From the NCBI GenBank assembly GCA_025350305.1, contig JANXYC010000160.1, positions 25,038 through 89,037 on the forward strand: a stretch of 64,000 bases of DNA, given 5' to 3'. Below are positions 47,735 to 63,074 of the stretch, in pieces. The notes under the pieces are model-generated. The model was not told the DNA's origin. It saw only the letters and a list, made by a program, of their open reading frames with translations, and did no database searches. How positions within the stretch are numbered: position 1 is the first letter of the stretch; each line of letters begins with the position of its first letter. Made by a program: the position numbers and the translations under genes. The stretch comes from Cyclobacteriaceae bacterium (lineage in GTDB: Bacteria > Bacteroidota > Bacteroidia > Cytophagales > Cyclobacteriaceae).

Positions 47735-49042
47735 TTATTTTTTTCTAAAAAAGAGGCGTACAGGCACACCGGTAAAGTCAAAGTTTTCGCGAAGCCTGTT
47801 TTCCAGGAAGCGTTGATACGACTCCTGGATGTATTGGGGAAGATTACAAAAAAATGCAAACGTTGGCGTAGCGGCATTTACCTGAGTAATATATTTAATC
47901 TGAATATGCTTGCCTTTGATGGCAGGAGGTGGATAATGAACAATTTCAGGAAGTAAGGCGTCATTCAGTGCCGAAGTAGGTACCTTTTTAATCTTGTTTG
48001 CATACACTTCTACCGCTTTTTCCACGACCTGGAAGATTCGTTGCTTTTGTAGCGCAGAGGCAAAGATGATGGGCACATAGTCAATCGGGGCCAGGCTTTC
48101 GAGCATTTCCTTCCTGATCTTGTCAGCTGTTTTGCTGTCTTTCTCCATGAGATCCCACTTGTTCACCATGATCACGATGCCCTTGCCTTGTTTCTGGGCA
48201 AGGGCAATGATACTCACATCCTGTGATTCTAATCCGCGTTGGGCGTCAATCACAACAATGCACACATCGCATTCTTCCAGTGCACGAAGCGATCGCAGGA
48301 CAGAATAAAATTCAATGTCTTCATGGACCTTGCTTCTTTTGCGAATACCCGCTGTATCGATTAGGATAAAATCGTTTCCAAACATTTTATAACGCGAATG
48401 AATCGCGTCGCGGGTGGTGCCGGCTTCGTCAGTTACGATGCTTCGTTCCTGACCGAGCAGTACATTCAGGAGCGACGATTTACCCACATTCGGCCGGCCG
48501 AGGATGGCAATCTTAGGAATGCCTGCATTGGGATCCTCTGCATCAACAACCTCAAAAACTTTTACCAGGTCGTCTAACAACTCACCGGTGCCGCCACCAT
48601 TCTCAGCGGAGATGGGATATACTTCACCCATACCGAGCGCATAAAACTCACTCGTGAGCATCGACTTGTCGGGAGTGTCGGCTTTGTTGGCGGCGATGAA
48701 GACCGGTTTTTTTGATTTGCGAATGATGTTGGCAAATTCCTTGTCATAACCGGTGAGGCCATCCCGGCAATCGACCATGAAAATAACGGCCGTTGCTTCT
48801 CCGATGGCAAGTTCTACCTGTCTGCGTATCTGTGATTCGAATTTGTCGTCAGAACCAGTGACATAGCCGCCGGTGTCAATAACGGTAAAAAACTTGCCGA
48901 TCCACTCTGCGTAGCCATAGTGACGGTCACGCGTAACGCCCGGCATGTCGTCCATGATGGCATCGCGTCGTTCAACCAGCCGGTTGAAAAAGGTTGACTT
49001 GCCCACATTGGGCCTTCCTACGATCGCTATGATATTGGCCAT
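47735..49042 (-). CDS. der: ribosome biogenesis GTPase Der (EngA)
   Basis: Two GRPNVGKS G1 motifs, DTGG and DTAG; TACCTTTG promoter motif at 49060-49067. Confidence 0.97.
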   Translation of the reverse strand: MANIIAIVGRPNVGKSTFFNRLVERRDAIMDDMPGVTRDRHYGYAEWIGKFFTVIDTGGYVTGSDDKFESQIRRQVELAIGEATAVIFMVDCRDGLTGYDKEFANIIRKSKKPVFIAANKADTPDKSMLTSEFYALGMGEVYPISAENGGGTGELLDDLVKVFEVVDAEDPNAGIPKIAILGRPNVGKSSLLNVLLGQERSIVTDEAGTTRDAIHSRYKMFGNDFILIDTAGIRKRSKVHEDIEFYSVLRSLRALEECDVCIVVIDAQRGLESQDVSIIALAQKQGKGIVIMVNKWDLMEKDSKTADKIRKEMLESLAPIDYVPIIFASALQKQRIFQVVEKAVEVYANKIKKVPTSALNDALLPEIVHYPPPAIKGKHIQIKYITQVNAATPTFAFFCNLPQYIQESYQRFLENRLRENFDFTGVPVRLFFRKK

Positions 49043-49398
49043 CTAACACTAAAAGTTTGCAAAGGTAGTCTAAAGTCCATGAATTGGATTCGTTAATTTA
49101 TCAGGATTTTAAAACGACCCTGAAACCTCCATTGACATAAGGCTTTCAGCAAGCTCGCACGAGTAAGACCAACGCGTGTCAACTATGAAAACGGTTTTGT
49201 TATTTTTTCGCCGCTAACTTTTCTATTTCTGTTTTACCATTTTTGATTCTTCCCAATTATCGCTTTACACGCAGGTGAACTTTCCAGGCCGCCATAGCGT
49301 GTGGGCGGGGTTAATTTTGTTAGGAATTTCGTTGTTAAGTGTATCAGAATTTCTACTTATCAATCCAAATCATTTAACTTTAAACAACAAAAGACTTA

Positions 49399-50127
49399 GT
49401 GAAAATGAGCGACAAACCTTTGAATCAAAAACTATGGCCCCTTTTGGTAAGCCTGGGAAGTGCCGGGGTGATGATACTTGCTTTTTTTATCCCTTCCATA
49501 CAAGACCAATGGGACCGCTACCAAGCTAGAAATGTAATTGAACGCTATGAGGAATTGGGCAATGAATTCTTTGAAGAAGAAAGATATGAAATGGCTGAAA
49601 AGTCGTATGCAAAAGCCTTTGAACTTTCGGAGCAAAAGCGAATCGACATAGAAATGAAGCGGTTGAACGCCAGGATTAATAGCATCCATACCGACCCAGA
49701 CTGGGGAGCCAGGTCACCCGAAGGTATCGAGGATATCGATTTTCAAATGTTACTTCACATGCAAAAGGGGAAGGAGCATAAGAATAACCGTGTCTCCACC
49801 CTAACGAGCTATGGTGTGTTCCTCGCCAGCCTGAATAGGACCAAAGAAGCAGAGGAGGCTTTTAAAGAGGCCATTCAACTTGACTCCACCGATGCACTGA
49901 CTTTAACTAATTTAGGAAATTTGTTCGATCAACAAGGCAAGAAAAATGAGGCTGAACAAGCTTATGTAAAGGCAATTTCGTTGGACCCATCCAACGCAGA
50001 AGCGCATTACAACTTAGCATTGCTCTATTTAGAACTTGGATTGGAAGAAAAAGCGAGGATTGAATTTGATAAAGCAGCCGAACTAAAACCACACCTTTCC
50101 ATGCCCACAAAAAAAACAATTCAGTAA
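49399..50127 (+). CDS. membrane-anchored TPR protein
   Basis: N-terminal TM; TPR repeats (EAFKEAIQLD, AYVKAISLDP, AHYNLA). Confidence 0.8.
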   Translation: MKMSDKPLNQKLWPLLVSLGSAGVMILAFFIPSIQDQWDRYQARNVIERYEELGNEFFEEERYEMAEKSYAKAFELSEQKRIDIEMKRLNARINSIHTDPDWGARSPEGIEDIDFQMLLHMQKGKEHKNNRVSTLTSYGVFLASLNRTKEAEEAFKEAIQLDSTDALTLTNLGNLFDQQGKKNEAEQAYVKAISLDPSNAEAHYNLALLYLELGLEEKARIEFDKAAELKPHLSMPTKKTIQ

Positions 50128-50145
50128 TAAACATAAAGAAAAGAC

Positions 50146-52101
50146 ATGGCTGACAAAGGTTATACGAAAAGTGAAATTTGGAAAAATATCTTTGGCATCA
50201 TTGTTCCATATAAAAAAAGATTCCTTCTAGTTGTTTTCATAAGCCTGCTAAGCACAGGGGCTAACTTAATAGAGCCGTTAATCTACCGGGAGGCCATCAA
50301 CGATGTAGCCGGCCTTTTCGTGCAAAAAGCCAAAGATGATACACGCCAGGCAATGGGTTCTGATTCTGTCAGCACAGCAAACGATTCAACTTTAATTGAA
50401 GACAAGAATGTCTTAGAGGACGGAGAAAAAGAAGCCCACCAAAAGGACCATGTTGCTTCGCGCACACCTGAGCAGGCAATCCAAACGTTGCTGTGGGCGG
50501 TAGGCTTGATTTTTTTGGTGAACATAGCAGGCCATATTTTAGTGCTGATTGGGGCAAACATGAATGTGAAATTAGCCTGCAATATCGAGCAGGGCTTTAT
50601 CCAAAACACCTTTGCCCATGTGCTAAAACAACCTCTTACTTTTTTCAGTAAGCGATCAAGTGCCGGGCTCTCCAAACAAATAAACCAGTCGGAAGAAGTC
50701 TCAGCCGTGGTTAACGGTTTTTCGGAGCAAATCCTTCCCGAAATCATCAGTCTAACGGGGATTTTGATTATCATGTTTTCTCAAAACGTTACGCTGTCAC
50801 TCATTGCACTCATCGTAATTCCATTTTACCTGATGATTGCCTGGCGTTCAGCCACAAAATTGGAAACAGGTCTTGCCGCTTACTATGAACGATGGGAAGA
50901 AGTTTCGGCACGTATGCAAGATGCGCTTGGTGGAATCAAAACAGTAAAACTTTCTGGTGCCGAACAACGCGAAGTAGGTGAATTTAAAAAAATATCCAAC
51001 GAGGCCTATGTGGATTACATCAAGCGGAATAAGCTTTCAAACAAATATGTATTTTGGGAAAATGCGTTGACCAATATCTCCAGTGCTTTGGTGCTGGGGT
51101 ATGGCGGCTACTTGACATTGGAAAGACAACTTACACCTGGTGATGTGGTCATGTTTGTGGCCTACCTTGACCGGCTCTACACCCCCATCGATGCGCTGGC
51201 AAGCCTATGGGTCAATCTCCAGCAAAACGTAGCCTCGTTGGCCCGGGCATTCAAACTATTGAAAAATAATAAAGAAGAAGAAAAAGGAAAAGAGCTATCC
51301 ATTGGTAAGGGCTTGGTTGAGTTTGACAACGTGCGCTTTGGCTACACGGCGGACAAGGAAGTGCTCAAAGGAATTTCGTTTTCGCTTGAGCCAGGTAAGG
51401 TCACCGCGTTGGTTGGCACTTCTGGTGCGGGCAAAACTACCACGGTGGATTTGTTAATGAAACTTTACGAACCCAACAGCGGTGAAATACGAATTGATGG
51501 CAAAAAACTAGCAGAGGCCGATGCCGCCTCGATCCGAAGCCAGGTAGGCATGGTAGCTGCCGACGGCGCCATTTTTCGCGGGACGTTGGCAGACAACATT
51601 CGATATAAAAGGCCGACTGCCACCGATGAAGAAGTATTGGCAGCCGCCCACGCAGCGGGTATGCACAACACGTTGCAGCGATTACCCGATGGACTGAAAA
51701 CCCTTGTGGGTGAAAGCGGGTTTGGTCTTTCCGTGGGCGAACGGCAACGGATTCAAATTGCCCGCGTACTGGTAGCGAAACCAAAAATCCTGGTATTGGA
51801 CGAAGCCACTGCTAACCTCGATTATGCCACGGAAGCCGAAGTAAAGAAAACAGTTGATGAAATACGAAAGAACAGCACCGTTATCGTGATCGCCCACCGT
51901 TATTCTATGATAAAGGATGCAGATCTGGTACTTGTATTATCCGATGGACAGGTGGTAGAAAAAGGAACCCCCGAAGAATTAATAGCCAAAGGTGGTTGGT
52001 TCGCCGGCTTTGCACACGCTGCCGATAAGGTTGGCCAGGATGATGTTGAAGAAAATGAGGAGGACGAGGAAGAAGAAGTTGACGAGGAAACTAAAGAATA
52101 A
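50146..52101 (+). CDS. ABC exporter (fused permease and ATPase)
   Basis: ABC_membrane helices, GTSGAGKTT, LSVGERQR, ILVLDEAT, IAHR; acidic tail. Confidence 0.93.
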   Translation: MADKGYTKSEIWKNIFGIIVPYKKRFLLVVFISLLSTGANLIEPLIYREAINDVAGLFVQKAKDDTRQAMGSDSVSTANDSTLIEDKNVLEDGEKEAHQKDHVASRTPEQAIQTLLWAVGLIFLVNIAGHILVLIGANMNVKLACNIEQGFIQNTFAHVLKQPLTFFSKRSSAGLSKQINQSEEVSAVVNGFSEQILPEIISLTGILIIMFSQNVTLSLIALIVIPFYLMIAWRSATKLETGLAAYYERWEEVSARMQDALGGIKTVKLSGAEQREVGEFKKISNEAYVDYIKRNKLSNKYVFWENALTNISSALVLGYGGYLTLERQLTPGDVVMFVAYLDRLYTPIDALASLWVNLQQNVASLARAFKLLKNNKEEEKGKELSIGKGLVEFDNVRFGYTADKEVLKGISFSLEPGKVTALVGTSGAGKTTTVDLLMKLYEPNSGEIRIDGKKLAEADAASIRSQVGMVAADGAIFRGTLADNIRYKRPTATDEEVLAAAHAAGMHNTLQRLPDGLKTLVGESGFGLSVGERQRIQIARVLVAKPKILVLDEATANLDYATEAEVKKTVDEIRKNSTVIVIAHRYSMIKDADLVLVLSDGQVVEKGTPEELIAKGGWFAGFAHAADKVGQDDVEENEEDEEEEVDEETKE

Positions 52102-52150
52102 TAGTGGCCGCCTTTGGATTCACTCAAAGTGAACAATGGATCAGAAACAA

Positions 52151-53056
52151 TCAATAGCCCCACTTCTTCATGATGTCATAATCCTCTTTCATGCATTCAA
52201 CGGGTCCTTTGCCCTGATAGGATTCCTGCTCGATGATAAAATGAATGGTCCCGGATGTACGTCCCAGGTCTGTCACTTCTTTCACACCGACAATACCTGC
52301 ACCCAGGATGGTACTTTCATATTTCTCCTTGCCTTCCTTGCTGAGGATCTCATCCTTCACGTGCATGGATTCAAATCTTCCCGGATATTGTTTAACAATA
52401 TCCATTGCCTTGGCTCCACCATTGTACAAATTGCCGATGTCCAATTGCTGCATGACCAGTGACGGATCGGTGTTCTTCAGGATAATGTCATAGACCGTCA
52501 TGTTATTCAGCCGCTGGCTAAATTCAAAATCGTGATTGTGATAACCGAATTTCATCCCAGACTTTTTGCACAACTCGCCTGATTTATTAAAGACCTCCAT
52601 GTACCGGATGCAATCATCATATGTTTTGCGCAAACTTTCATCCAGCCACGGGCTGATGACAAATTGTTGACCCACCGCGGCCGCATCTTCCACGGTATAT
52701 TTCCAGGCATCGGTAAAAGCTTTTTTCTCAGCATCCCAATGCTGTTTGCCCATCACGGTATGACCGCTTGGCATCCTCATGCCCAGATCATCCAGTATTT
52801 TTTTAAATTCTGAAGCTGACCATCCGTAGAATTTGCGATTTACATAATTGGCATGCTCGACGTTTTTGTACCCGATGGCCGCCAATTGCTTCAAGGTACC
52901 GAGGGGGTCACTTTTCATGAGGTCCCGCACGCAATAAAGTTGCAGTCCCAATACTTCATTTCCTTTTGCTTCGGCAAAAAGTGAATGACTGAACGCTGCT
53001 GTGCCCGCCAATGCGAAGGCACTTTGTTTTAAGAAACCTCTTCGTGAAGTACTCAT
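52151..53056 (-). CDS. sugar phosphate isomerase/epimerase (TIM barrel), Tat-exported
   Basis: SRRGFLK Tat signal, GLQLYCVR, FGYHNHDFEF, MHVKD. Confidence 0.9.
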   Translation of the reverse strand: MSTSRRGFLKQSAFALAGTAAFSHSLFAEAKGNEVLGLQLYCVRDLMKSDPLGTLKQLAAIGYKNVEHANYVNRKFYGWSASEFKKILDDLGMRMPSGHTVMGKQHWDAEKKAFTDAWKYTVEDAAAVGQQFVISPWLDESLRKTYDDCIRYMEVFNKSGELCKKSGMKFGYHNHDFEFSQRLNNMTVYDIILKNTDPSLVMQQLDIGNLYNGGAKAMDIVKQYPGRFESMHVKDEILSKEGKEKYESTILGAGIVGVKEVTDLGRTSGTIHFIIEQESYQGKGPVECMKEDYDIMKKWGY

Positions 53057-53530
53057 GCTGTTTAATGTTTATTCAGGAAGACGAATATAGTAAAAAGGTT
53101 TTTGAAAAAAGATAGTCCGAGACCAGCCGGAACTCAGCCCAAAAGAATACCTAAAGAAGGACAAAGAAATATATTCGTTAGGAAATTGATTACACCCCCT
53201 GGCCATTTGGCCAATCTTTCCGGGTCTGTACTGTCGCCCGGAAAAGTATGGCCCCTTTTATCCAGAAACTTTGCAGTGGGACTTTTTCTTCTGCTTGTCC
53301 GATTAGGATAATTTTTGAGAACCCACGGGTGTAATTGAGTGTCGGTTTCTGCAATTTATCAGTGCTAAACAAAACGCCAATTCAATTGGGTTTTTGTTGT
53401 CATCTCTAAATCTTTAATTAAGATTCTTAAATCTTCGTTCTTTAACGAGTCATTTGCTTCCTTATATTTGACTAATGCCTTCCCTCATCCCCAATTAAGA
53501 ATGCAATATTTTTATTTCCCACAGCCCCCG

Positions 53531-53576
53531 CCACGTTGGTGTTCAGTGGGCTTGCGCGGCGGCGGACACCAACGCG
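53531..53576. repeat. REP family C copy 1
   Basis: cgttggtgttcag ... acaccaacgcg hairpin. Confidence 0.8.
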
Positions 53577-53638
53577 ACTTCGCACGTCAGCAGCACGCAC
53601 CTTTTCGCTTGCCCTGTGCCACTGCTCAACCCAACCCC

Positions 53639-53970
53639 CTACCCTTCAATATGCGAAAAAAAATCCCAATCCTTCTCGTTGCAAAGGTAAAATCGCGCAC
53701 TTGAATACTTGTATTCTTCCGGGTACTTGCAAAGTCCAGCTTTTACTGGATTACTGTGAATATAGTTAAGTTTCTGTTTGAGGACCGAAGGTGACCACAA
53801 CGGTATGCTTAGGGATTTTCTCATCCACACCTGGTACTTTCTGTCTAGCTTGTTAACCAGCATGTCGGCTAATAAAGGTGAGTCCGCGTTCGTAAGATTT
53901 CTTAAGATCATTTGGGCCATTGACGGGAAGTCACCGTTGTATAATCGGCGTATCGTTTGACAAATTTCAT
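53639..53970 (-). pseudogene. REP-associated tyrosine transposase (RAYT) with internal deletion
   Basis: MKFVKRYADYTTVT..W start, then DRKYQVW, KLNYIHSNPVKAGL, PEEYKYSSARFY; no HUH motif. Confidence 0.8.
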
Positions 53971-54049
53971 ATCGCCAAACTCGAGAAAATCATGCGGCAA
54001 TAAAATCCTGCTTTCCAGACAGACTTAAAGTTTGCATTAAGTTCGCGGC

Positions 54050-54100
54050 GCGCGTTGGTGTCGCCCGCGCGCTGCCAACTGAACACCAACACGAGGCAGG
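54050..54100. repeat. REP family C copy 2 (inverted relative to copies 1 and 3)
   Basis: gcgcgttggtgt ... gaacaccaacacgaggcagg. Confidence 0.85.
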
Positions 54101-54101
54101 G

Positions 54102-55103
54102 ATAGCGGGAGCTGTTGTAAAACAGTTGCAACTGAAACTCCTGTCAGTGCCAAAGAGTGCTGCTTCTAAGACCACTATTGAGGTTCATAAGCTGCTTCTC
54201 CAGGGTAATTATTTTTGGGATAGAGGAGGAGTGGAAAATTATAATAAAGCAGATGAGTTTTACAACCAGGCTTTAGCCAATGACTCCGGTAATGCGCGGA
54301 TTTGGGCTGCAATGACAAAAGTGAAAATTACCCGTGCTGTAAGCTCCTATAAAGATTACCATGTGAATTTTAACAAAGCCAAGGAATACGCGGCTCGTGC
54401 TATTTTACTGGATAGCCAATTGCCCGAAGCCCATCGGGTAATGGGTGTAATAATGATGTTCTATGACTTTGATTGGCAGGGAGCAGAAAGAGAGTATGGC
54501 CGGGCTCTGGAATTGGAACCCGGTAACTCGGATACGTATAGAAATTTGGCTCAACTGGAAAACATTCTTGGAAGGTACGAGGCAGCTGTTGTTCATTTCG
54601 AGAAGGCGCTTGAATTAAATCCCCTTAACTGGTTAACCATTAGCAACCTTGCAAACACTCTTCATTTGATGTCCAAGCATGAGGAGGCGATCCGCATATT
54701 CAAAAATGGAATGGAATTGAATCCACAAGGTGCTTATCAAGGTTTAGCGTATGCCTATTTGGTGTCGAACAAGCCCCGGCAAACACTTGAACAATTAGAG
54801 ACAATCCCAAATGGTTCCTATAAAACTTATCTTTCTGCAATGGCCTATCACGAACTCGGGCGTAGGAAGGAAGCTAAGGAAGCTTTTGACAAGGTGCTTC
54901 TTGAATATAAAAATGGAAGTTATCGAATAGCCCAGATTTATGCGTTCATGAACCAGAAAGACAAGGCCTTTCGTTGGCTCGAGAAAGCTTATTCAGAAAA
55001 ATATTTTATGTGGGTGTTAAAGACGGATTATCTACTTACTAATCTGCGAGGCGACCCTCGCTACATAGATTTATTGAGAAGAATGAATTTGCCTTTAAAT
55101 TAA
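54102..55103 (+). pseudogene. TPR protein (C-terminal half of a TolB-like/TPR signalling protein), 5'-truncated
   Basis: Frame begins IAGAVVKQLQLKLL right after the REP, with no upstream ATG; multiple TPRs; AFRWLEKAY...LRGDPRY tail. Confidence 0.7.
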
Positions 55104-55280
55104 CGTCTTCTCAAAGTCTGCTATAGTTTCCAATCTACTTTTGTAAGTAGCTTAATGATCCAATACGTTCAGTAAAAAGTCAGTCGCCGAAGCGATGTCA
55201 CACCTCATCCGTTTTTTCTTTGTACCGAATGAGCTTTAACACCGGTCTAACACCTTTTTCAAAACCGCGCATCTATTTTT

Positions 55281-55480
55281 GAGGCTCGTCCAGGTTTATC
55301 AAAGATCAAAGTTTAATAGTAAGTTCTAAATGTCCACCAAGTCCTAGATCTTACAGGGAGATCTCCTGATGTGGAGAACATTGAGGAGAAGTCAGGCGCC
55401 TACGCTAAAGCTTCAGCGCCAGCGTGCAGAGGTCATAGTAATTGGAAGCAACGAGCTCCGCGAAACGCGGGGAGGACTCA
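55281..55480 (+). ncRNA. group II intron relic (3' end of D1, D2, D3) with a 31-nt hairpin insertion
   Basis: tcttacagggagatctcct..aggagaagtcag [55396-55426] cagaggtcatagta ... ggaggactcac resembles the class C D1/D2/D3 junction. Confidence 0.7.
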
Positions 55481-55498
55481 CAACCTATGAAGTGGCAT

Positions 55499-56785
55499 TC
55501 AATTCAACAATGCAGCAACCTTTTCCTTCAACATTTTTCTTTCGGTTTTGGATTGAGTTAAGCGGATGGCTGTTTCAAAATTCTTTTTTGCTTCTACTGA
55601 ATTATTCAGCCGTGAGTTGATTTCTCCAAGCAAACTGTGATAGAGATAATAGGTTTCCATTTTATTTTTTTCAGAAATGCCTTTCAAAAATTGCAATGCT
55701 TCTGCTGCTCCATTAACCTGCATCAATACAACTGCTTTGTTCAATTCGGTAATTGGAGAGGGAGATATTTTACAAAGCCAGTCATACAATTCTAAAATTC
55801 GTTTCCAGTTTGTTTTGCCAAAACTTTCTGCTGTGCAATGTTCAAATGCAATGGCGGCTTCCAAATGATAGTTGCTTATGGAATTACCAAAGGCAGCTTT
55901 GTCCATGTATTCGTTTCCCTTTGCAATCAAATTATAATTCCATTTTCTTCTGTCCTGATTCGCAAGCAAAATAATTTCCCCTTCAGTAGTCAAACGGCTG
56001 TCGCTTCTTGACGAATGAAAATACATCAGTGCCATCAACGCAAAAGTTTCTGGCAGTTGTGTGTCTTTATTTTCTGTTAGTAGTTTGCAAAGCAAGATGG
56101 CTTCATCAATCAAATCTTTGCGAATGAGTTCGTTGGAATGAGTTGAATTATAGCCTTCATTAAACAAAAGATAAATTGAATTCAACACAGCACTATTTCT
56201 GTTTTTAATTTCAGAAGCAGAAGGGATTTCCATTTTGATTTTATGCTGACGAAAAAATTCTCTCGTTCGGTAAAGTCGTTTTGAAACGGTGTCTTCTGAA
56301 GTGAGAAATGATTTTGCAATTTCTGCGGTGCTGAAACCACAAAGTGTTTTTAAGATTAGAGTGATTTGATTCTCTTCTGAAATTTCAGGATGACAACAAG
56401 CGAACATCATCCGTAACATATCATCGGCAATCAATTCTTCTTTCCAAAGGTTTTCCATCGTAGTTGCTAAGGTATATTCAGATTTGAGCAATGCTCTTTC
56501 GCTATCGCTAAAATCATATTGAACTGAGTGTTTGTTTTTGCGAATAACATCAATGGCTTTATTTTTTGCAACGCGAAAAAGCCATGCAGAAGGATTATCA
56601 GGAATTCCTTTGAATGCCCACACTTGCAAAGCATCCATAAAAGTTTGCTGCACCACATCTTCGGCAGTCCCTAAATTTTCTGTGCCAAATATTTTCGTTA
56701 AAACGGAAACCATCTTTCCGGATTCATGACGGAAAAGATGGTCGCTTAGTTGGTGAACATTGTATGTAGAATTTTTATCCTGCAT
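55499..56785 (-). CDS. ECF sigma factor with C-terminal TPR extension (ECF42-type)
   Basis: AEDVVQQTF, WLFRVAKNKAIDVIR, LRMMFACCHP, LCGFSTAEIA, YLLFNEGY; YciI neighbours. Confidence 0.88.
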   Translation of the reverse strand: MQDKNSTYNVHQLSDHLFRHESGKMVSVLTKIFGTENLGTAEDVVQQTFMDALQVWAFKGIPDNPSAWLFRVAKNKAIDVIRKNKHSVQYDFSDSERALLKSEYTLATTMENLWKEELIADDMLRMMFACCHPEISEENQITLILKTLCGFSTAEIAKSFLTSEDTVSKRLYRTREFFRQHKIKMEIPSASEIKNRNSAVLNSIYLLFNEGYNSTHSNELIRKDLIDEAILLCKLLTENKDTQLPETFALMALMYFHSSRSDSRLTTEGEIILLANQDRRKWNYNLIAKGNEYMDKAAFGNSISNYHLEAAIAFEHCTAESFGKTNWKRILELYDWLCKISPSPITELNKAVVLMQVNGAAEALQFLKGISEKNKMETYYLYHSLLGEINSRLNNSVEAKKNFETAIRLTQSKTERKMLKEKVAALLN

Positions 56786-56875
56786 GATTGAAAATCAAAA
56801 ATTTGCTACGAAAGCAAACATTACAAATTACTTCTTTTAAAGAATAAGTATGGAGCACAAAGATGCTTAAAACAA

Positions 56876-56914
56876 AAACCATCTTCTCCATTTTTAAATT
56901 GAAGAAGATGGTTT
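56876..56914 (-). terminator. hairpin between the YciI gene and the sigma gene
   Basis: aaaccatcttct ... agaagatggttt, with a T run on the minus strand. Confidence 0.55.
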
Positions 56915-56937
56915 ATGTTTTTTTTCAGCAATGCTTA

Positions 56938-57291
56938 TCACTTCGGCATATCCACCTTTTTAAGCTGACGGATTTCTACTTTTCCATCATGCTCTAAAAT
57001 CGGGCAACCTTTTGAAATTTCTGTTGCTTCATCCAACGAAGATGCTTTCACAATCAAGTAACCGCCAACGGTTTCTTTCGCCTCCATAAACGGACCGTCA
57101 ATTACCATTTTGTTTTTTCCGTTTACTTGTTTGCCTGCCACTTCAAGCGGTTCACCGCCATCAAGGATTTGTTTTTCAGCAAGCCCTTTCATCCATGCTC
57201 CCCATTTTTGCATGTGTGCCTGCAACAATTCAGGTGACTGTTGTGCACTTACAGCATCACCGCCTCTGAAAATATATAGATACCTTTCCAT
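56938..57291 (-). CDS. YciI/DGPF family protein
   Basis: DGPFMEAKETVGGYLIV. Confidence 0.9.
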   Translation of the reverse strand: MERYLYIFRGGDAVSAQQSPELLQAHMQKWGAWMKGLAEKQILDGGEPLEVAGKQVNGKNKMVIDGPFMEAKETVGGYLIVKASSLDEATEISKGCPILEHDGKVEIRQLKKVDMPK

Positions 57292-57315
57292 ATTGTTTTT
57301 GTTTTTAGATTTTAA

Positions 57316-57696
57316 TTATTTGTTTGAATGAAGACCAATTAAATTACCTTCTGTGTCAGTAAAAAATGCCATGAAACCATTTTCTCCAATAGCTGTTTTC
57401 GGCATCTTGATTTTGCCTCCGGCTTTTTCAACTTTTGAAAGTGCTTTCTTTAAATCAGGATTTCCGTTCAGATAAATCTTAACGCCATCCTTACCCGGCT
57501 TGTGCATTTTACTTTCGCAAATGCCTCCTGAAGCTTTTCCGCTGCCAGCTTTCCAAGGGAAGAATGCCATTTTCATTCTCATCATTTCTATTACTTCCAT
57601 CTTGATTCCGAATATTGCTTCGTAGAATTTTTTTGCACGGTTGATATCTTCCACTGAGATTTCAAACCAGTTGATTGAATTTTCTTTTGCTGTCAT
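57316..57696 (-). CDS. VOC/glyoxalase family protein
   Basis: NWFEISVEDINRAKKFYEAIFG, FTDTEGNLIGLHS. Confidence 0.9.
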   Translation of the reverse strand: MTAKENSINWFEISVEDINRAKKFYEAIFGIKMEVIEMMRMKMAFFPWKAGSGKASGGICESKMHKPGKDGVKIYLNGNPDLKKALSKVEKAGGKIKMPKTAIGENGFMAFFTDTEGNLIGLHSNK

Positions 57697-57730
57697 TTTG
57701 ATTTTTTTTATTGTTTATTATGAATTGATT

Positions 57731-58069
57731 TTACATTCCTGGTATTGGCATGGATTCATGAACTTCAATAGAGCATTCAGCATTATAAGCTAAGTGTGGA
57801 TGCCCTTGCAAAAGTGAAATTGCTTCCTTCATATCATTTGCCTGAAGAACAGAATATCCCGAAACTTGTTTGTTGCTGGCAGAACTACCGGCAGCAGTAA
57901 GAGATTGGCCATTTGCAAGCTGAGAACCCATATCCACTAATTTGTCGCCACATTTTTTAGCCCATGTCATCCAGGCTTCCATTCCTTTTGCTTGTTGCTC
58001 AGGAGTCATTTCATTAGTATGCATACCTGCTTCTCCAGGTGCATGATAGATTACGATAAATTTTTTCAT
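57731..58069 (-). CDS. YciI-like protein
   Basis: EAWMTWA, LVDMG, GYSVLQA.DM.EA..LL.GHPHL, IEVHE. Confidence 0.75.
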   Translation of the reverse strand: MKKFIVIYHAPGEAGMHTNEMTPEQQAKGMEAWMTWAKKCGDKLVDMGSQLANGQSLTAAGSSASNKQVSGYSVLQANDMKEAISLLQGHPHLAYNAECSIEVHESMPIPGM

Positions 58070-58238
58070 TTTGTTTTTGTTTTTAATTGTTTGTGAATAT
58101 TTGAATTATACTCTAATGACGAACTCACTTTTGAAATTTGGACATGAAGTTGTAATTTTTTTGTTGGCGAAAACACTCTTTTATTTTTTTTGGGTAGGTT
58201 TTTTCGTGTGTGGCAAAAAAATGAAAGTGTGTTTTGTG

Positions 58239-58450
58239 GTGCGCCCAGTATGGCGTGTTAGATATTCCAGACGGGAATATGAATAGATTATCCAGAGGGT
58301 GCAAGACCCGTATGTGCACAGCATCGATGGGCATTAGTAAGCTGCAAAGCCTGCACCGCTTTTTTGCGGGGGTGGTTTGTCGTGAGGCAAGCACTGAAGA
58401 AAGCAGGACTACAAAGATCTCCTGATGTGGAGAACATTGAGGAGAAGTCA
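58239..58450 (+). ncRNA. group II intron relic (5' end and D1, joined to D2)
   Basis: Begins gtgcgcccag; gagggtgcaagacccg and ctgaagaaagcaggac resemble class C D1 motifs; no RT ORF or D5 follows. Confidence 0.72.
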
Positions 58451-58476
58451 GGCGCCTACGCTAAGGCTTCAGCGCC
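58415..58476 (+). repeat. 62-bp direct repeat, right copy (left copy 55359-55420)
   Basis: agatctcctgatgtggagaacattgaggagaagtcaggcgcctacgctaa(a/g)gcttcagcgcc; 61/62 identical. Confidence 0.95.
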
Positions 58477-58520
58477 TCTTCAGCCCTTACTTGGGCAATA
58501 TAATATGCGGTACTGAAATC

Positions 58521-58553
58521 AAAAAAGGCTTCAAAGTTACCTTCGAAGCCTTT
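58521..58553 (-). terminator. intrinsic terminator after the GH3 gene
   Basis: aaaggcttc ... gaagccttt stem with a T run on the minus strand. Confidence 0.75.
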
Positions 58554-58573
58554 CATTCAAACTATTTAACAGA

Positions 58574-60928
58574 TCAGGATTTAGGTACTTTCTTCTTATA
58601 AGTTGTCACCCTCTTATCATTAATAACACCTTTCCAATTAAGACCGAAACCAAAATCATATGCATTCCCTTCTGTATCAACATGTACTTTCATATCGTGC
58701 GGAACGTCTTCCAATTGTCGCTCAACTATATCCATATCGGCAGGCATTTGAACCGGAAGCAAAGCGGAAGGCTGAGCACCGCCTGACAGCACATCCATCA
58801 CGGCTTGATCCATCACCCCAAACCCATATAAAATTCCATCTACTTGTTTTTCGAACTCTGCAAATACCATTGGTTTATTTCCCTGAACAACCACCACGAC
58901 GGGCTTTCCTTTCATAGCTACTTTTGTATCCAGTATTGACTTTAGATCGCTAAAGTTGGAAGCCGTTATTTCTTTTCCTTTATAAGATCGGTTCGTAATC
59001 GTGGGGTCAATGACCGGGTCGCCTGCCGCAATACTTCTTTCCCGGGCAGCAGCTGCCACGTAAGGGCCGTATTGAAGTGAAATCGGAACATAACCATTGC
59101 CTCCCTTTTCCCGATCTTCTTTACTGTAACCCGTCATGCCTTCAGGACTTTTGACAAAGACAATTGCCAGGTCAGCCTGAGCGGGGTCTTCTGTTACATT
59201 AAAGTATTTTTTTGAGATATCAAGGCTCACTGGGTATTCAATGCGCTCAGGTGTTACGTTACCAAAGAAGTCCCTGGCGGCTGGAATTACACGCTTAGGA
59301 ATGTAAACCGTTTTGCTTTTTTTAAGGGGTAGGATTTTGCCTTTGTTCTTTAAGAGAATCAAAGACTTCAACTGTGCTTCATAACCAGCTGTCATATATT
59401 CCGAATTTCCAACAACACTCTTGGAGACCCGAGGATCTAAATAAGGATTTTCGAAAAGGCCGACACGAAAAATATTTTTCAACAATCGAACCGCGGACTC
59501 TTCCATTCGCTTTCGCATAGATTGTTCACCGTGCTCATTAACACCAATCTGATACGCCTCCAGCACAGGACCGGCAACATTGTTCCCGCCAAACTGATCG
59601 ACACCTGCCATAATAACTTTGTAGTGTCGCTGTGCAATGGTTTGAGCTTCTACTCCCCATGATTTCCCTGCAAAAATATCCGGGGTCTTTCCCTCATCAC
59701 CTGTTATCCGCCAATCGGTACATACTACTCCATCATATCCATATTTCTTCCTTAACAGATCCGTAATAATATATTTCGAAAAGCCATTACCCACATTTTC
59801 GTTATACTTAGTATCCTGATTGTAAGAGATAGTATAGTACGGCATAACAGCAGAAGCCATTTTGGTTTTTCCTGTTAAATTGAAAGCACCTTTTAGAAAA
59901 GGTATCAGGTGAGTATTAAAATTATTACCAGGATAAACTGCAAATTTTCCATAAGCGTAATGGCCATCTCGTCCACCTTCTTCAGGGCCACCACTGGGCC
60001 AGTGTTTTACCATAGCATTCACACTGTGGTATCCCCAACCATCCCTTATTTCAGAACCGTCGGAAGAAGTTTGAAATCCGTCCACATACGCTCTCGCCAT
60101 ATCTGCCGATAAAGTTGGGTCTTCTCCGAAAGTACCGTTGATTCTGTTCCACCTCGGCTCGGTGCCAAGATCAATTTGCGGAGAAAGGGCAGTAGCAATT
60201 CCTAACGCCCGATATTCTTTTCCTGCGATTGACCCAAATTTTTGCACGAGCGAAGGATCAAAGGTTGCAGCAAGACCCAGTGATTGAGGCCACATTGAAA
60301 TTTTTCCCCCACTACCGGCATTATACTCTGTACTGGCATCAACACCGTTGCGTGGGTCTGAACTTGTATTGACTGGAATTCCCAGCCCAAGGCCTTCAAC
60401 CAGCGCTTGTGCATTATTATTCCATCGTGCTGCCACTTCTGGACTTTCCACCGTAGTGATTAGCACATGCCGAAGATTGTCATTTGTTAAGAAATTTTTC
60501 TGCTGATCAGAGAGGTCGGAAGAAATAGCACCGCTTTCACCTAAAGCCGTTCCATTATAGGTACCACTTCCAAATCCTCCTGGTCTTGCCGGAATGGATT
60601 GATGTCCGCTATAAAGCATCAATCCTGCTATTTGCTCCACAGACATTTTTGAAGCAAGATCTTTTGCGCGTTCATCTACTGGCAATCGCCAGTCTTCATA
60701 TTTATCAAGACTTCCATTTTTATTCAAATCCTTAAAAGCCAAACCATCGACTGTCAATATTTCAATTGCAGATGCAGGCGAACGGCCTATGGTTTGTCCC
60801 TTTGGATTTGTGATGATTGAAAAGTTTTCACTTTTCTTCTCAGTCCATTGTTGACCAAATGTCGCTAAGGCCAACAGAAAACAGGATAAGGTAAATAGTG
60901 ATTTCAATGTGGATTGGATTGAGGGCAT
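58574..60928 (-). CDS. GH3 beta-glucosidase (secreted)
   Basis: IPVNTSSDPR, ALSPQIDLGTEPRWNR, AMVKHWP, GVVCTDW, GVDQFGG. Start at ATG 60928 (inside the palindromic element) or TTG 60907. Confidence 0.93.
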   Translation of the reverse strand: MPSIQSTLKSLFTLSCFLLALATFGQQWTEKKSENFSIITNPKGQTIGRSPASAIEILTVDGLAFKDLNKNGSLDKYEDWRLPVDERAKDLASKMSVEQIAGLMLYSGHQSIPARPGGFGSGTYNGTALGESGAISSDLSDQQKNFLTNDNLRHVLITTVESPEVAARWNNNAQALVEGLGLGIPVNTSSDPRNGVDASTEYNAGSGGKISMWPQSLGLAATFDPSLVQKFGSIAGKEYRALGIATALSPQIDLGTEPRWNRINGTFGEDPTLSADMARAYVDGFQTSSDGSEIRDGWGYHSVNAMVKHWPSGGPEEGGRDGHYAYGKFAVYPGNNFNTHLIPFLKGAFNLTGKTKMASAVMPYYTISYNQDTKYNENVGNGFSKYIITDLLRKKYGYDGVVCTDWRITGDEGKTPDIFAGKSWGVEAQTIAQRHYKVIMAGVDQFGGNNVAGPVLEAYQIGVNEHGEQSMRKRMEESAVRLLKNIFRVGLFENPYLDPRVSKSVVGNSEYMTAGYEAQLKSLILLKNKGKILPLKKSKTVYIPKRVIPAARDFFGNVTPERIEYPVSLDISKKYFNVTEDPAQADLAIVFVKSPEGMTGYSKEDREKGGNGYVPISLQYGPYVAAAARERSIAAGDPVIDPTITNRSYKGKEITASNFSDLKSILDTKVAMKGKPVVVVVQGNKPMVFAEFEKQVDGILYGFGVMDQAVMDVLSGGAQPSALLPVQMPADMDIVERQLEDVPHDMKVHVDTEGNAYDFGFGLNWKGVINDKRVTTYKKKVPKS

Positions 60929-61010
60929 CTCTAAAAACTCCTTGTACCCTTCTCTTCCGGAGAAGGGTAACGGGTTGAGGCCATAAAAGACAAGGTTTTT
61001 AGAGATGCCC
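60923..61010. mobile_element. 88-bp palindromic MITE-like element, copy 2
   Basis: Same TIRs as 44415-44502; open in frame with the GH3 gene on the minus strand. Confidence 0.8.
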
Positions 61011-61442
61011 TTGTTTAAATTCATTATGTTGTGATTACGCAATATTATCAATTTCAATCACTCGCACAACTTGATTTAGACTGTTCAGAGGAAATCCCCG
61101 ACTAACTGGTGCGGGTGGGTAATAAGCGCTTTGGCAGGAGTAAACCATCCCCAACCTAATCCCACCATCAAATGAGCTGGAAATAAAACTGTGTTCTCCC
61201 ATCTGGCCAATAATGTGGGTGATCCATTGTGTTTGTGGCAGGTTTTCATAGCCTGAAGAAAATTCAGGAGCATCATTTGCTTACCTGATATAATACGTAT
61301 TTTTAGGTTTCTCCTTAAAGTCGGGCCATGAGCAAACAAAATCAGCCTGCTTGCGCGCAAAAAATTTTGTGAAAAAAATCAACCAAAGCGCCTTTCCCCC
61401 TTACGATCCAAATGAACCGTGTTAACATATCCTTTCAAGAAA

Positions 61443-63074
61443 ATGAAAAAAATATTTATCCTATCGGTATTGTCACTCTTGTTGAGAGTGAATGCTGCCG
61501 CGCAGAGTAATAATCTCTTTTCGGTTCAAACCAAGATCATCAACGGTACCATTGAAGGCAACTATAACACCAAGACAGGTGTTCAGACGTACTTCGGGGT
61601 TCCTTTCGCCAAGCCACCCATCGGGATTCTTCGATGGAAAGCCCCTCAGCCGGTTGAGAATTGGAAGGATGTTAAAGAAACCAAGCGCTTTAGCTACAGA
61701 CCAATACAAGGGATTGTTTTTGGCGACATGAATTCACGATCAAACGGACTTAGTGAAGATTGTCTTTATCTCAACATATGGACACCGGCTACCCGGAATT
61801 CCAAAGACCTGCCTGTGCTGCTATATTACTTCGGAGGAGGAAATGTTGCCGGCGATGGTTCCGAACCCCGTTATGATGGCGAGAGCATGGCTAAAAAAGG
61901 AATTGTTGTTATAACCTGTAATTACCGGCTTAACATCTTTGGTTTCATGGCTCATCCGGAACTAAGTGCTGAATCGCCTTATAAAGCGTCCGGTAATTAT
62001 GGTCTGTTGGATCAATCAGCAGCCTTAAAATGGGTTTATGATAACATTGCCGCTTTTGGCGGCAATCCTAAAAAAATAACCATTGCTGGCGAGTCTGCCG
62101 GATCTTCTGGCGTAAGCTATCAAATGTCTTCGCCGCTCAGCAGAAACCTCCTGGCTGGGGCAATTGGTGAAAGTGGTTCCGGAATGAATTTAAGGAATGC
62201 ACCCGCATCGTTGGCGGAAGCAGAGAAAACAGGTGCTGATTTCGTGAAGAATGCCGGCTACACAAGCATTGCCCAGATGAGAGCATTAAGTACAAAAGAG
62301 GTGTATGAACTATACAATGAATCCAAAGGACTTAGATTCCCAATTGTCCTGGACAACTATTTCCTGCCCAAACCAATGAGTGCTATTTTCAATTCAAGAG
62401 AACAGGCGCAAGTACCGCTGTTGGCAGGATGGAATTCGGCAGAGGTTGACGGTGCTGCATTTATGAACGGGCAGGCGTACACAAAAGAAAACTTTGCCGA
62501 TAGGGTAAAGAAGGAGTACCCAAATGATTTTGATGAGGTCTTAAAGTTATATCCTTCAGACACGGAAAAGGAAATAGAAATTTCAGCTACCGCACTGGCC
62601 TCTGACCGGTTCATTGCGTATAGCACCTGGAAATGGTTTGAGATGCATAGAAAAAACAGCACGCAACCTGTCTATCGTTACCTGTATAGCAAATTACGCC
62701 CTCCGTTGGTTGATAACTCCCTGGCCTCCGGACTGGCGGGAGGCACTGTAAAGAAAGATCCAAACGCTGCCAAACACAATGAGCCGATTGGCGCCCCTCA
62801 TGCATGCGAGATTGAATATTGCATGGGCAACTTAAACTTAGTAAAAGAGTATGCCTGGACGGCGGAAGATTTCAAAGTCTCTGATACCATGCTAAACTAT
62901 TTTGCCAATTTCATTAAAACCGGAAATCCAAATGATGGCATACTGCCTGAATGGACTGCCGCTAAAGCCGGCGACGTCAATGCCCCTGTAATGATTATTA
63001 ATACTGAATCAAAAACAATCAATGCCGACGATATACGCTATCGCTTTTTAGACAGGGGACTCATCAAGAATTAA
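61443..63074 (+). CDS. type B carboxylesterase (para-nitrobenzyl esterase-like), secreted
   Basis: FGVPFAKPP, SEDCLYLNIW, GGNPKKITIAGESAG (GxSxG); signal peptide MKKIFILS. Confidence 0.93.
   Translation: MKKIFILSVLSLLLRVNAAAQSNNLFSVQTKIINGTIEGNYNTKTGVQTYFGVPFAKPPIGILRWKAPQPVENWKDVKETKRFSYRPIQGIVFGDMNSRSNGLSEDCLYLNIWTPATRNSKDLPVLLYYFGGGNVAGDGSEPRYDGESMAKKGIVVITCNYRLNIFGFMAHPELSAESPYKASGNYGLLDQSAALKWVYDNIAAFGGNPKKITIAGESAGSSGVSYQMSSPLSRNLLAGAIGESGSGMNLRNAPASLAEAEKTGADFVKNAGYTSIAQMRALSTKEVYELYNESKGLRFPIVLDNYFLPKPMSAIFNSREQAQVPLLAGWNSAEVDGAAFMNGQAYTKENFADRVKKEYPNDFDEVLKLYPSDTEKEIEISATALASDRFIAYSTWKWFEMHRKNSTQPVYRYLYSKLRPPLVDNSLASGLAGGTVKKDPNAAKHNEPIGAPHACEIEYCMGNLNLVKEYAWTAEDFKVSDTMLNYFANFIKTGNPNDGILPEWTAAKAGDVNAPVMIINTESKTINADDIRYRFLDRGLIKN

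Follow-up and report, generated by a model that had tools for sequence, protein, structure and literature searches.

Within the 64,000-nt stretch of DNA analysed here (the window), a four-gene block of low GC content lies between two nearly identical direct repeats, each of which is a piece of a group II intron. The question which this locus raises is whether the repeats are the ends of an integrated element, or whether a more ordinary history of the introns themselves could have produced the same picture.

Anatomy of the repeat and its two introns

The features around the repeat copies are the following.

55349..55496, plus strand: left intron remnant, made up of the terminal 10 nt of D1, the stem of D2, an inserted hairpin of 31 nt, and D3
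55359..55420, plus strand: left copy of the 62-nt repeat, 37 nt of D2 and the first 25 nt of the 31-nt hairpin element
55396..55426, plus strand: 31-nt, presumably mobile hairpin GCGCCTACGCTAAAGCTTCAGCGCCAGCGTG, inserted between GAAGTCAG and CAGAGG at the D2/D3 junction
58170..58238, plus strand: 5' exon of the right intron, a 20-bp stem-loop and then GTG, shaped like a target of class C introns
58239..58476, plus strand: right intron remnant, made up of the true 5' end GTGCG, the initial part of D1, then D2, and 25 nt of the hairpin
58415..58476, plus strand: right copy of the 62-nt repeat, located by repeat detection in the window

Repeat detection and a DNA pattern search found exactly two copies of the repeat in the window, with no match in any of 100 shuffles, and a contig search of the 4.2-Mb genome gave no third site for the full 62-mer. 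The copies are identical at 61 of 62 positions and their longest common exact run is 50 nt. The one mismatch falls at repeat position 51, where the right copy has a derived G (58465) and the left copy has A (55409), as do all copies of the hairpin element outside the repeat. This degree of identity is not above that ordinarily seen within a subfamily of the introns; the intron copy C81, for example, matches at 36 of 37 positions over D2.

The window remnants were placed by nhmmer with an intron profile built from two intact copies of approximately 670 nt in the same genome (C66:2233-2897 and C125); intact copies match Rfam models RF02001 (83-116 bits), RF01998 and RF00029 (39.7 bits). On the left, window positions 55349-55493 correspond to profile positions 446-566. 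This remnant has ten further intron bases (TCTTACAGGG) 5' of the repeat and the rest of the hairpin together with D3 on its 3' side, the D3 part being 96% identical to copy C66a, and its alignment to intact copies stays colinear with the consensus through either end of the repeat. The boundaries of the repeat are therefore both breakpoints of the right remnant alone. The left remnant ends 2 nt short of the sigma factor stop codon and nothing of D4-D6 is left, which is surprisingly neat if a deletion fell there at random.

The right remnant lies at a separate insertion site of its own, a 20-bp hairpin followed by TTTTGTG|GTGCG, and the DNA fold of this stem-loop (-11.3 kcal/mol, z = -3.4) was equalled by none of 200 shuffles. 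Window positions 58233-58419 correspond to profile positions 86-294, which cover the 5' end (GTGCG at 58239) and the first part of D1, and positions 58415-58453 correspond to 458-496, that is D2. Approximately 165 nt of D1 are absent, and the resulting joint between D1a and D2 lies at GATCT, a 5-nt microhomology present both in D1 and at the start of D2. The right repeat copy stops where the hairpin stem has its 3' foot, and unrelated DNA follows. Rfam RF02001 gave only a weak match to this remnant (21.9 bits, E 0.66). Its D1 is 96% identical to C7:58474-58654 and only 78% identical to C66b, while the D2 of the repeat is 97% identical to C81 and 92% identical to C66b and C242. The right remnant thus looks chimeric, with a D1 of the GTGCG subfamily and a D2 of the GTGTG subfamily; it changes from one to the other precisely at the deletion joint, which would not be expected of a simple internal deletion.

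Both remnants can be aligned to intact family members which have a 5' GUGYG start, D1-D4 and D5-D6, as expected of group II introns. Neither Rfam nor profile searches found D5 or D6 near the left or the right remnant; both window copies are dead fragments. The left flank at 55104-55348 was considered as a degenerate homing site with an intron start, and was set aside as its alignment scores equalled those of shuffles and nhmmer gave no match.

The anatomy described in a first-pass annotation of this DNA agrees well with these results: 61/62-identical repeats around an AT-rich four-gene cassette, a repeat consisting of D2 and an inserted hairpin (in fact part of one), a hairpin insertion older than the duplication, and the arrangement of the intron parts, D2-D3 to the left of the cassette and 5' end-D1-D2 to its right, the last now borne out by the profile positions of both remnants. 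That the halves might come from unrelated introns, which it had named as a possible objection, applies in part, as the D1 and D2 of the right remnant belong to different subfamilies.

Habits of the intron family

The family concerned is ORF-less and class C-like, and has at least a dozen loci in this genome, with matches on 14 contigs (28 fragments). A single copy, C242, encodes a reverse transcriptase. Insertion follows the rule TTGT|T after a covarying attC-like hairpin, T being the next base in unoccupied sites as well. Approximately 16 of these homing hairpins are present in the genome. Compensatory changes affect 15 of the 20 pairs of their 20-bp stem; the base of the stem reads AAC...GTT, there are bulges, and the loop varies. 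At C162 a perfect 9-bp box extends across the insertion point. The hairpins occur in arrays at a spacing of 1.3-3.4 kb with genes antisense to them, and the neighbour genes of the intron elements are likewise almost all antisense. No homing hairpin of this usual family was found beside either window remnant, an observation which does not sit easily with two ordinary insertions.

Separate fragments of introns or homing sites lie 0.6-2 kb apart on the same strand at C66, C81, C105, C242, C7 and C271; same-strand intron fragments with antisense genes in between are the norm in this genome. The "permuted" layout is also seen at C66, where hairpin insert-D3-D6 is followed by a 231-aa antisense ORF and then by a homing hairpin with a full intron. 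Most family copies are eroded, with recurrent breakpoints near profile positions 294-334, 450-459 and 494-496 (C7, C271, C81, C66a), and breakpoints in the family coincide with the insertion sites of small hairpins.

In the alignment the intact copies C66b, C242 and C125 do not have the 31-nt element. It recurs in identical form in introns of other genomes which have different D2 stems (L076, L083), in L083 at two sites, and with one mismatch in L077. Three of the insertions observed come after GAAGTSA, and we suggest that the element has been mobilised. As a small hairpin identical in unrelated contexts and genomes it resembles REP elements and the hairpins mobilised by RAYT or Y1 transposases, from which it differs in being low-copy here (four close copies) and in having no identified cognate transposase. 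The intron family and the 31-nt hairpin are both common to distant Bacteroidota genomes.

The operon and its relatives

The genes and signals between the two introns, and the terminator beyond them, are as follows.

55499..56785, minus strand: ECF42-type sigma factor, 428 aa, with C-terminal extension (Pfam Sigma70_r2, Sigma70_r4_2, DUF6596)
56869..56921, no strand assigned: inverted repeat with 26-nt arms, 88% complementary, between the YciI and sigma genes
56938..57291, minus strand: YCII-domain protein, 117 aa (Pfam YCII)
57316..57696, minus strand: glyoxalase/VOC-fold protein, 126 aa (domain search)
57731..58069, minus strand: YCII-domain protein, 112 aa, first gene of the operon (Pfam YCII)
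58118..58144, minus strand: ECF-type promoter-like motif TGTCCAAAT-N12-TTCGTC, located inside the cassette, 75 nt before the first ATG of the operon
58518..58553, minus strand: intrinsic terminator of the GH3 gene, a 13-bp stem and then a T run (fold -11.6 kcal/mol, z = -5.5)

All four cargo genes are intact, and the element as a whole is flanked by genes for TPR and GH3 proteins. The segment 55499-58232 has a GC content of 0.364, whereas the genome averages 0.447 (sd 0.021), and only 0.3% of 2.7-kb genome windows are as low. This compositionally foreign block ends exactly where both remnants begin, a point against two separately eroded introns. No recombinase gene was found in the cassette or adjoining it. 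The inverted repeat at 56869..56921 may act as an internal terminator or attenuator. In the congener G018 and at 12 of 19 homologous loci the promoter-like motif recurs at a distance of 68-94 nt before the first gene, and it may serve as the promoter.

ECF42 sigma factors combine sigma-2 and sigma-4 domains with a long C-terminal extension, and are encoded near a YCII-domain gene (PMC8999054). The operon has all of these, as do the described modules Sven_0747 and P. putida ECF-10 (Liu 2018, Wu 2019; reviewed in PMC8999054), and nothing in it is unusual, the VOC and second YciI genes being variable accessories. Sigma homologues with 54-80% amino acid identity lie beside YciI genes at 22 other Bacteroidota loci, more distant ones (34-43%) were found at six further loci, and the operon context is conserved in 28 of 30 homologous loci. 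The operon thus recurs at 28 other loci of Bacteroidota, the majority of which have the upstream motif. None of the 30 homologous sigma loci in other genomes is flanked by intron fragments. Most likely the operon was acquired horizontally and is an ordinary, self-contained unit with its own conserved promoter; a history of two eroded introns does not account for the route of its arrival.

G018 is the one congener with the operon, which is there at a different locus, also of low GC. Nucleotide identity is 77.6% and 85.5% over two assembled end fragments, as compared with 66-77% for neighbouring genes. An unoccupied hairpin lies approximately 270 nt upstream of the G018 operon, 8 kb separate sigma from the nearest hairpin on its downstream side, and fold prediction gave no convincing hairpin past the sigma stop codon in either the window or G018. 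Homology between the two operons spans promoter to stop only; as this is the constrained part, their matching boundaries are no evidence for a discrete mobile unit and that proposal was dropped.

Genes of the genus are only 65-77% identical at the nucleotide level and are thus too diverged for intergenic synteny. Two candidates for an empty site were rejected. A GH3 gene beside an AP_endonuc_2 gene (G012, G002) shows only 28-30% amino acid identity, the gene order differs between G012 and G002, and the best match of this lead in the present genome is on another contig. The C42 copy of GH3 (84% nucleotide identity) has an unrelated flank.

A JGI metagenome scan for the repeat gave 0 matches, and a search with the hairpin-junction pattern returned only ordinary, unrelated introns in two other GTDB genomes and one JGI contig; the search for different cargo between the same repeat, which the first-pass annotation had proposed, thus yielded none. 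The cassette had no match in plasmid and phage collections, and exact-protein look-ups with the right-flank 31-aa ORF, the TPR gene and GH3 gave no further contexts. At the L076 locus of a Chryseolinea MAG, a 2.3-kb cargo of XRE and beta-lactamase-fold genes lies between intron pieces with a shared repeat of approximately 18 nt; two eroded introns with hot-spot breakpoints explain it equally well, so it does not constitute a second case.

Origin of the layout

On balance we favour the reading that two independently eroded copies of one common intron family flank an ordinary acquired operon. The two ORF-less class C-like copies would have inserted separately, on the same strand and antisense to the genes, one landing just downstream of the sigma stop codon and the other after a hairpin, upstream of the operon promoter and between the operon and the GH3 terminator, with the operon having been acquired horizontally at some earlier time. 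Deletions would have eroded both, leaving the end of D1, D2, the hairpin insert and D3 on the left, and the 5' end, D1a, D2 and 25 nt of the hairpin insert on the right. The 62-nt "direct repeat" would then be nothing more than the sole segment still common to both remnants, and the "permutation" would be two tandem introns taken for one. The order of these events and the independence of the deletions we infer. This reading is indicated by repeat ends which are breakpoints of the right remnant only, by the fit of that remnant's authentic 5' junction to the family insertion rule, by the genome-wide occurrence of same-strand fragments with C66 as a "permuted" counterpart, by general erosion with recurrent breakpoints and a repeat identity ordinary for a subfamily, by a cassette free of recombinase genes and homologous loci free of flanking introns, and by the same behaviour in published class C-attC introns (PMC7923331, PMC3001079).

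The first-pass annotation had proposed that a circle carrying the cassette integrated by recombination within D2, and that dead introns serve as att-like sites. Neither proposal is borne out or needed, given right-only breakpoints, a separate insertion site, the different subfamilies of D1 and D2 in the right remnant, a repeat identity ordinary for a subfamily and the genome-wide habit of the introns. Nothing shows the 62-nt repeat to be a new kind of integration site. The further remark that it knew of no named system with such a layout overlooked group IIC-attC introns, which flank integron cassettes in antisense (PMC7923331, PMC3001079). These introns too go in at TTGT/T, within a stem-loop or directly behind it, and run antisense to the genes on either side. 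They occur as several copies per array with truncated copies common, and can lie on each side of a cassette; it has been proposed that intron copies, by recombining homologously with one another, join genes to new sites. The present family differs in consisting of ORF-less miniatures of approximately 670 nt in a Chitinophagales-like Bacteroidota MAG, in the lack of any integron integrase found here, in hairpins which fit the attC consensus only loosely and are not seen beside the window remnants, and in a cargo that consists of an operon of four genes under a promoter of its own. If the ordinary reading is right, tandem eroded hairpin-homing introns can be mistaken for the direct repeats at the ends of an integrated element, and "permuted intron halves" need no circular intermediate. 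The locus is a well-documented example of an ORF-less class C-like intron family with approximately 16 covarying target hairpins and recurrent-breakpoint decay.

It is unlikely, in our view, that a foreign operon with intron pieces (D2-hairpin-D3; hairpin-5' end-D1a) instead entered a resident intron stub, TCTTACAGGG-repeat-TCTTCAGCCC, between TPR and GH3. Entry would have been either by a Campbell crossover of a circle inside the 62-nt segment, or by homology-facilitated illegitimate recombination of a linear fragment with the homologous crossover in the repeat and the illegitimate joint at GATCT. Rather unlikely too is the related proposal that the remnants are scars of intron-mediated gene capture, in which an intron-flanked foreign operon recombined with a resident stub (crossover in D2/hairpin, illegitimate joint at GATCT). 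The foreign composition of the cassette, the direct repeats at both ends of this compositionally distinct cargo and the different low-GC locus of the operon in G018 are all consistent with integration, which would also explain the chimeric D1a|D2 joint at its microhomology. Introns and 31-nt hairpins spread across distant Bacteroidota could supply portable homology, and Leon and Roy have proposed homologous recombination between introns for cassette formation (PMC7923331), a proposal of which neither that paper nor PMC3001079 gives a direct demonstration. As in Campbell-type or homology-facilitated illegitimate recombination, direct repeats surround foreign DNA and one joint lies at a 5-nt microhomology, but there is no cassette recombinase and the breakpoints of one remnant explain the boundaries of the repeat. 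An exact homology of 50 nt is a poor substrate for RecA-type recombination. No circle, empty site or alternative cargo came up in the JGI and GTDB scans, and two strains two SNPs apart have the same junctions with no sign of heterogeneity. Integration also requires one event more than the null model, all five junctions being common to both, and the genome-wide intron habit already accounts for the layout. Were integration true, the locus would be natural evidence of group II introns providing homology for the movement of regulatory operons between genomes; were the capture reading true, it would be a natural instance of the Leon-Roy idea in an integrase-less Bacteroidota setting.

Improbable is a local rearrangement in which both introns were present beforehand and the right repeat derives from the left remnant, at a distance of 3 kb, either as a 62-nt templated patch by template switching in replication or repair, or by unequal exchange at GATCT giving a tandem duplication which later collapsed to a scar. 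The chimeric joint exactly at GATCT, found in D1 and at the start of D2, the derived G of the right copy, its end at the 3' foot of the hairpin stem and the family breakpoints at hairpin insertion sites all suit such copying. Two joints in one complex event, or two successive events, are however required, no other such patch was identified in the genome, and subfamily mixing could predate the locus.

Quite improbable is that the operon is a gene cassette moved by site-specific recombination at attC-like hairpins, with the introns marking two former sites. The integron-like look of the homing hairpins (stem base, bulges, variable loop, the C162 box, arrays and antisense genes) and the unoccupied hairpin upstream of the G018 operon speak for it. 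The window remnants, however, have no such hairpin beside them, none is predicted past the sigma stop codon in either species, and the next one downstream of sigma in G018 is distant. A motif scan of this 92%-complete MAG revealed no IntI-like integrase gene, the only recombinases being XerC- and XerD-like proteins and two Bacteroidetes-type integrases, none of them on contigs with homing hairpins.

Contig JAYSLO010000457.1 of a second MAG (GCA_043725515.1) reproduces window positions 48936-62110, including both repeat copies, with a single mismatch at 53659. The locus occurs in samples SRR22198310, SRR23617164, SRR23617167, SRR22198307 and SRR20627842. Logan contigs of five SRA runs reach leftward to 55456, across the D3|sigma joint, and three of these, from further samples, also reach rightward to 58444, across the intron 5' junction and the D1|D2 joint; at k = 31 such contigs cannot span the repeat, and they cross three of the five joints. 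An assembler loop or chimeric join at the repeat, which might be suspected in a MAG of 305 contigs many of which end in intron copies, is accordingly very improbable indeed, given the identical second assembly, the crossed joints, an exact shared run (50 nt) below usual final k-mer sizes and a D1a|D2 joint which shares only 5 nt and permits no k-mer join.

Repeat pair and intron remnants

A repeat search of the window found two direct copies of a 62-nt sequence, at 55359-55420 and 58415-58476, which are identical at 61 of 62 positions; the one mismatch is at repeat position 51 (A vs G) and the longest exact run common to both copies is 50 nt. No such match was produced in 100 shuffles of the sequence, and a search of the whole source genome (G000) found no further full 62-mer. 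G000 is a MAG of 305 contigs and 92% completeness, and the window covers 25038-89037 of its contig C164. A contig of a second MAG assembly (JAYSLO010000457.1, GCA_043725515.1) is the same as window 48936-62110 but for one base, 53659, and contains both repeat copies. The Logan contigs of SRR22198310, SRR23617164, SRR23617167, SRR22198307 and SRR20627842, five SRA runs, extend left to 55456 and so span the D3/sigma joint; those of the last three also extend right to 58444, over the intron 5' junction and the D1/D2 joint. These three are two SNPs apart within the cassette and end 30 nt inside the repeat, as expected for k = 31 assemblies. Given this second assembly, the Logan contigs over the joints, the 50-nt exact run and a D1/D2 joint with only 5 nt in common, it is very unlikely that the layout arose in assembly.

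Each copy lies in an eroded group II intron piece, and these were placed on an intron profile made from two intact copies of the same genome (C66:2233-2897 and one on contig C125):

55349-55493, plus strand, left remnant, matching profile positions 446-566
58233-58419, plus strand, right remnant 5' part, matching profile positions 86-294
58415-58453, plus strand, right remnant D2, matching profile positions 458-496

From these placements the repeat consists of 37 nt of the D2 stem followed by 25 nt from the start of a 31-nt insert, GCGCCTACGCTAAAGCTTCAGCGCCAGCGTG. In the alignment the insert is preceded by GAAGTCAG and followed by CAGAGG, and copies C66b, C242 and C125 are without it. The first-pass annotation had read the repeat as D2 plus an inserted hairpin, with D2-D3 on the left and the 5' end, D1 and D2 on the right, and both the profile matches and the alignment to intact copies bear this anatomy out. 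The left remnant is colinear with the intron beyond both ends of the repeat, and therefore both repeat boundaries are breakpoints of the right remnant only. At the first of these, approximately 165 nt of D1 have been lost internally with a joint at GATCT; the second lies at the hairpin's 3' foot, where the remnant breaks off. The right remnant retains its own 5' junction, a 20-bp stem-loop followed by TTTTGTG/GTGCG (z = -3.4). Its D1 belongs to the GTGCG subfamily (96% identity to C7) and its D2 to the GTGTG subfamily (97% to C81, 92% to C66b and to C242), and the change from one to the other coincides precisely with the joint at GATCT. Between the left remnant and the sigma stop codon there are 2 nt. 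AGATCT, a palindrome, or GATCT was observed at three joints (window 55344-55364 and 58411-58420), namely 10 nt ahead of the left repeat copy, at its start, and at the D1/D2 joint of the right remnant.

The 31-nt hairpin, GCGCCTACGCTAAAGCTTCAGCGCCAGCGT(G), at window 55396-55426, was also found in a Chryseolinea MAG (L076:5436-5466), in another genome (L077, with one mismatch) and on a JGI contig (L083:801-830 and 1064-1094), where it follows GAAGTGA in D1 and GAAGTCAG at D2/D3. It is otherwise identical across the group II introns of different genomes while the surrounding intron sequence varies, and it has the appearance of a very small mobile element that prefers certain targets. Related hairpins with compensating stem changes are present on contigs C33 and C43.

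The intron family and its homing hairpins

G000 carries a family of ORF-less group II introns of approximately 670 nt, of which the intact C66 and C125 copies match Rfam RF02001, RF01998 and RF00029 and the C242 copy still encodes a reverse transcriptase. Most copies are eroded, with recurrent breakpoints near profile positions 294-334, 450-459 and 494-496 and small hairpins inserted at the same places. A similarly permuted appearance was seen on C66, where hairpin insert-D3-D6 is followed by an antisense ORF of 231 aa and then by a homing hairpin and full intron.

The homing element measures 130-175 nt and is present in about 16 copies in G000, including:

C297 (2973, 6440, 9373), homing hairpins
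C242 (7239, 9207), homing hairpins
C105 (1275, 2603), homing hairpins
C145, C162, C136 and C63, homing hairpins

Its long-range stem of 20 bp shows compensatory changes at 15 of the 20 pairs among nine aligned copies. Introns are always positioned a few bases past the stem, at TTGT, and in unoccupied sites a T follows TTGT (TGGCAG and similar); on C162 a perfect 9-bp box lies across the insertion point. Elements and introns form one-strand clusters with a spacing of 0.6-3.4 kb, and nearly every adjoining gene is antisense to them (C297, C242, C105, C66, C81, C136, C162). Class C introns, especially IIC-attC introns, enter the hairpin bottom strand at TTGT/T, opposite to cassette genes, truncated copies are frequent, and homologous recombination between intron copies has been proposed to attach genes to new sites (PMC7923331, PMC3001079). 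The G000 family resembles these in hairpin target, TTGT/T, antisense genes and frequent truncation. The same hairpin family was observed in congeners (L071, L072, L073, L074). Its members have AAC...GTT at the stem base and a variable loop, and they form same-strand arrays with antisense genes between them, including a restriction-modification-like pair.

The sigma-factor operon

The repeat copies enclose four intact genes, all on the minus strand:

minus strand, sigma factor of 428 aa (Sigma70_r2, Sigma70_r4_2, DUF6596)
minus strand, YCII protein
minus strand, glyoxalase/VOC protein
minus strand, second YCII protein

The C-terminal extension and YCII neighbours of the sigma factor fit the ECF42 type (PMC8999054). 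Of 30 loci in other genomes with a homologue, 28 have it beside YciI genes, and at 22 of these 28 the amino acid identity is 54-80%. TPR or GH3 neighbours (the genes flanking the present locus) and intron fragments were found at none of the 30. The motif TGTCCAAAT-N12-TTCGTC precedes the operon's first gene by 68-94 nt (here 58118-58144), and also occurs in congener G018 and at 12 of 19 other loci across Bacteroidota. Its conservation implies that the operon brings its own promoter-like element and has no need of the intron remnant, and the motif is a candidate autoregulated ECF42 promoter in Bacteroidota.

The cassette (55499-58232) has a GC content of 0.364, where the genome averages 0.447 (sd 0.021), and only 0.3% of equally long genome windows reach so low a value. 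The limits of the low-GC block coincide exactly with the intron remnants. In G018 the operon occupies a different locus, is again low in GC and has an unoccupied homing hairpin approximately 270 nt upstream. Two end fragments of the G018 operon are assembled, and their nucleotide identity to the window is 77.6% and 85.5%, compared with 66-77% for neighbouring genes. The different locus, low GC and higher identity indicate that the operon was probably acquired horizontally. The stretch shared by G000 and G018 was considered as a mobile unit and rejected, the homology running just from promoter to stop codon.

Origin of the layout

Any model must explain the same five joints. On balance we favour, by a little, the null model of two independent intron insertions, each subsequently eroded. 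This would need deletions only, of the kind seen at many other loci, and would also account for orientation, antisense arrangement and the authentic 5' junction of the right remnant. It does not sit comfortably with the D1/D2 subfamily switch at GATCT, the ends of the low-GC block, or a left remnant 2 nt from the stop codon, all of which would be explained had recombination between intron copies taken part. Such recombination may have accompanied acquisition of the operon, either as the first-pass annotation proposed, by integration within D2 of a circle carrying the operon and an intron remnant, or in a linear homology-facilitated variant, and this we regard as possible but unlikely. A later local template switch or unequal exchange would account for the same three features and is rather improbable. 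For an integron-like cassette we see little chance; the homing hairpins are attC-like in form, and a motif scan of G000 found no integron integrase. An assembly artefact scarcely merits consideration.

The broader suggestion of dead introns and REPs as att-like sites for regulatory cassettes is unsupported: the 62-mer is confined to this locus, no recombinase gene is present in the cassette and the 30 homologous sigma loci are without intron flanks. The sole look-alike, L076 (CAZAHL010000327.1, 2580-5615), is equally well explained as two eroded introns. There a homing hairpin, intron 5' end and D1a precede two antisense genes over 2.3 kb, encoding an XRE-HTH membrane protein and a protein of beta-lactamase fold, and after these comes D1b-D2-hairpin insert-D3, the intron pieces overlapping in an imperfect repeat of about 18 nt, ACTGAAGAA(A)CA(T/C)GAACTG. 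Divergence of the genus is too great for intergenic synteny to be compared.

Further repeated sequences were noted as well. A MITE-like element of approximately 95-110 nt at 60918-61030, near the GH3 5' end, has many copies of 85-98% identity in G000 (C239, C170) and congeners G015, G018, G019 and G020, and probably accounts for the absence of any Logan contig containing the entire GH3 gene. A second GH3 gene lies on a 2.6-kb contig (C42:240-2573); it shares 84% nucleotide identity with the one in the window, its downstream sequence is unrelated, and it represents a paralogue or the gene of a co-binned relative. Segments 53531-53726 and 53976-54101, previously annotated as a gutted RAYT between REPs, recur on C136 at 88-99% identity, in two places each.
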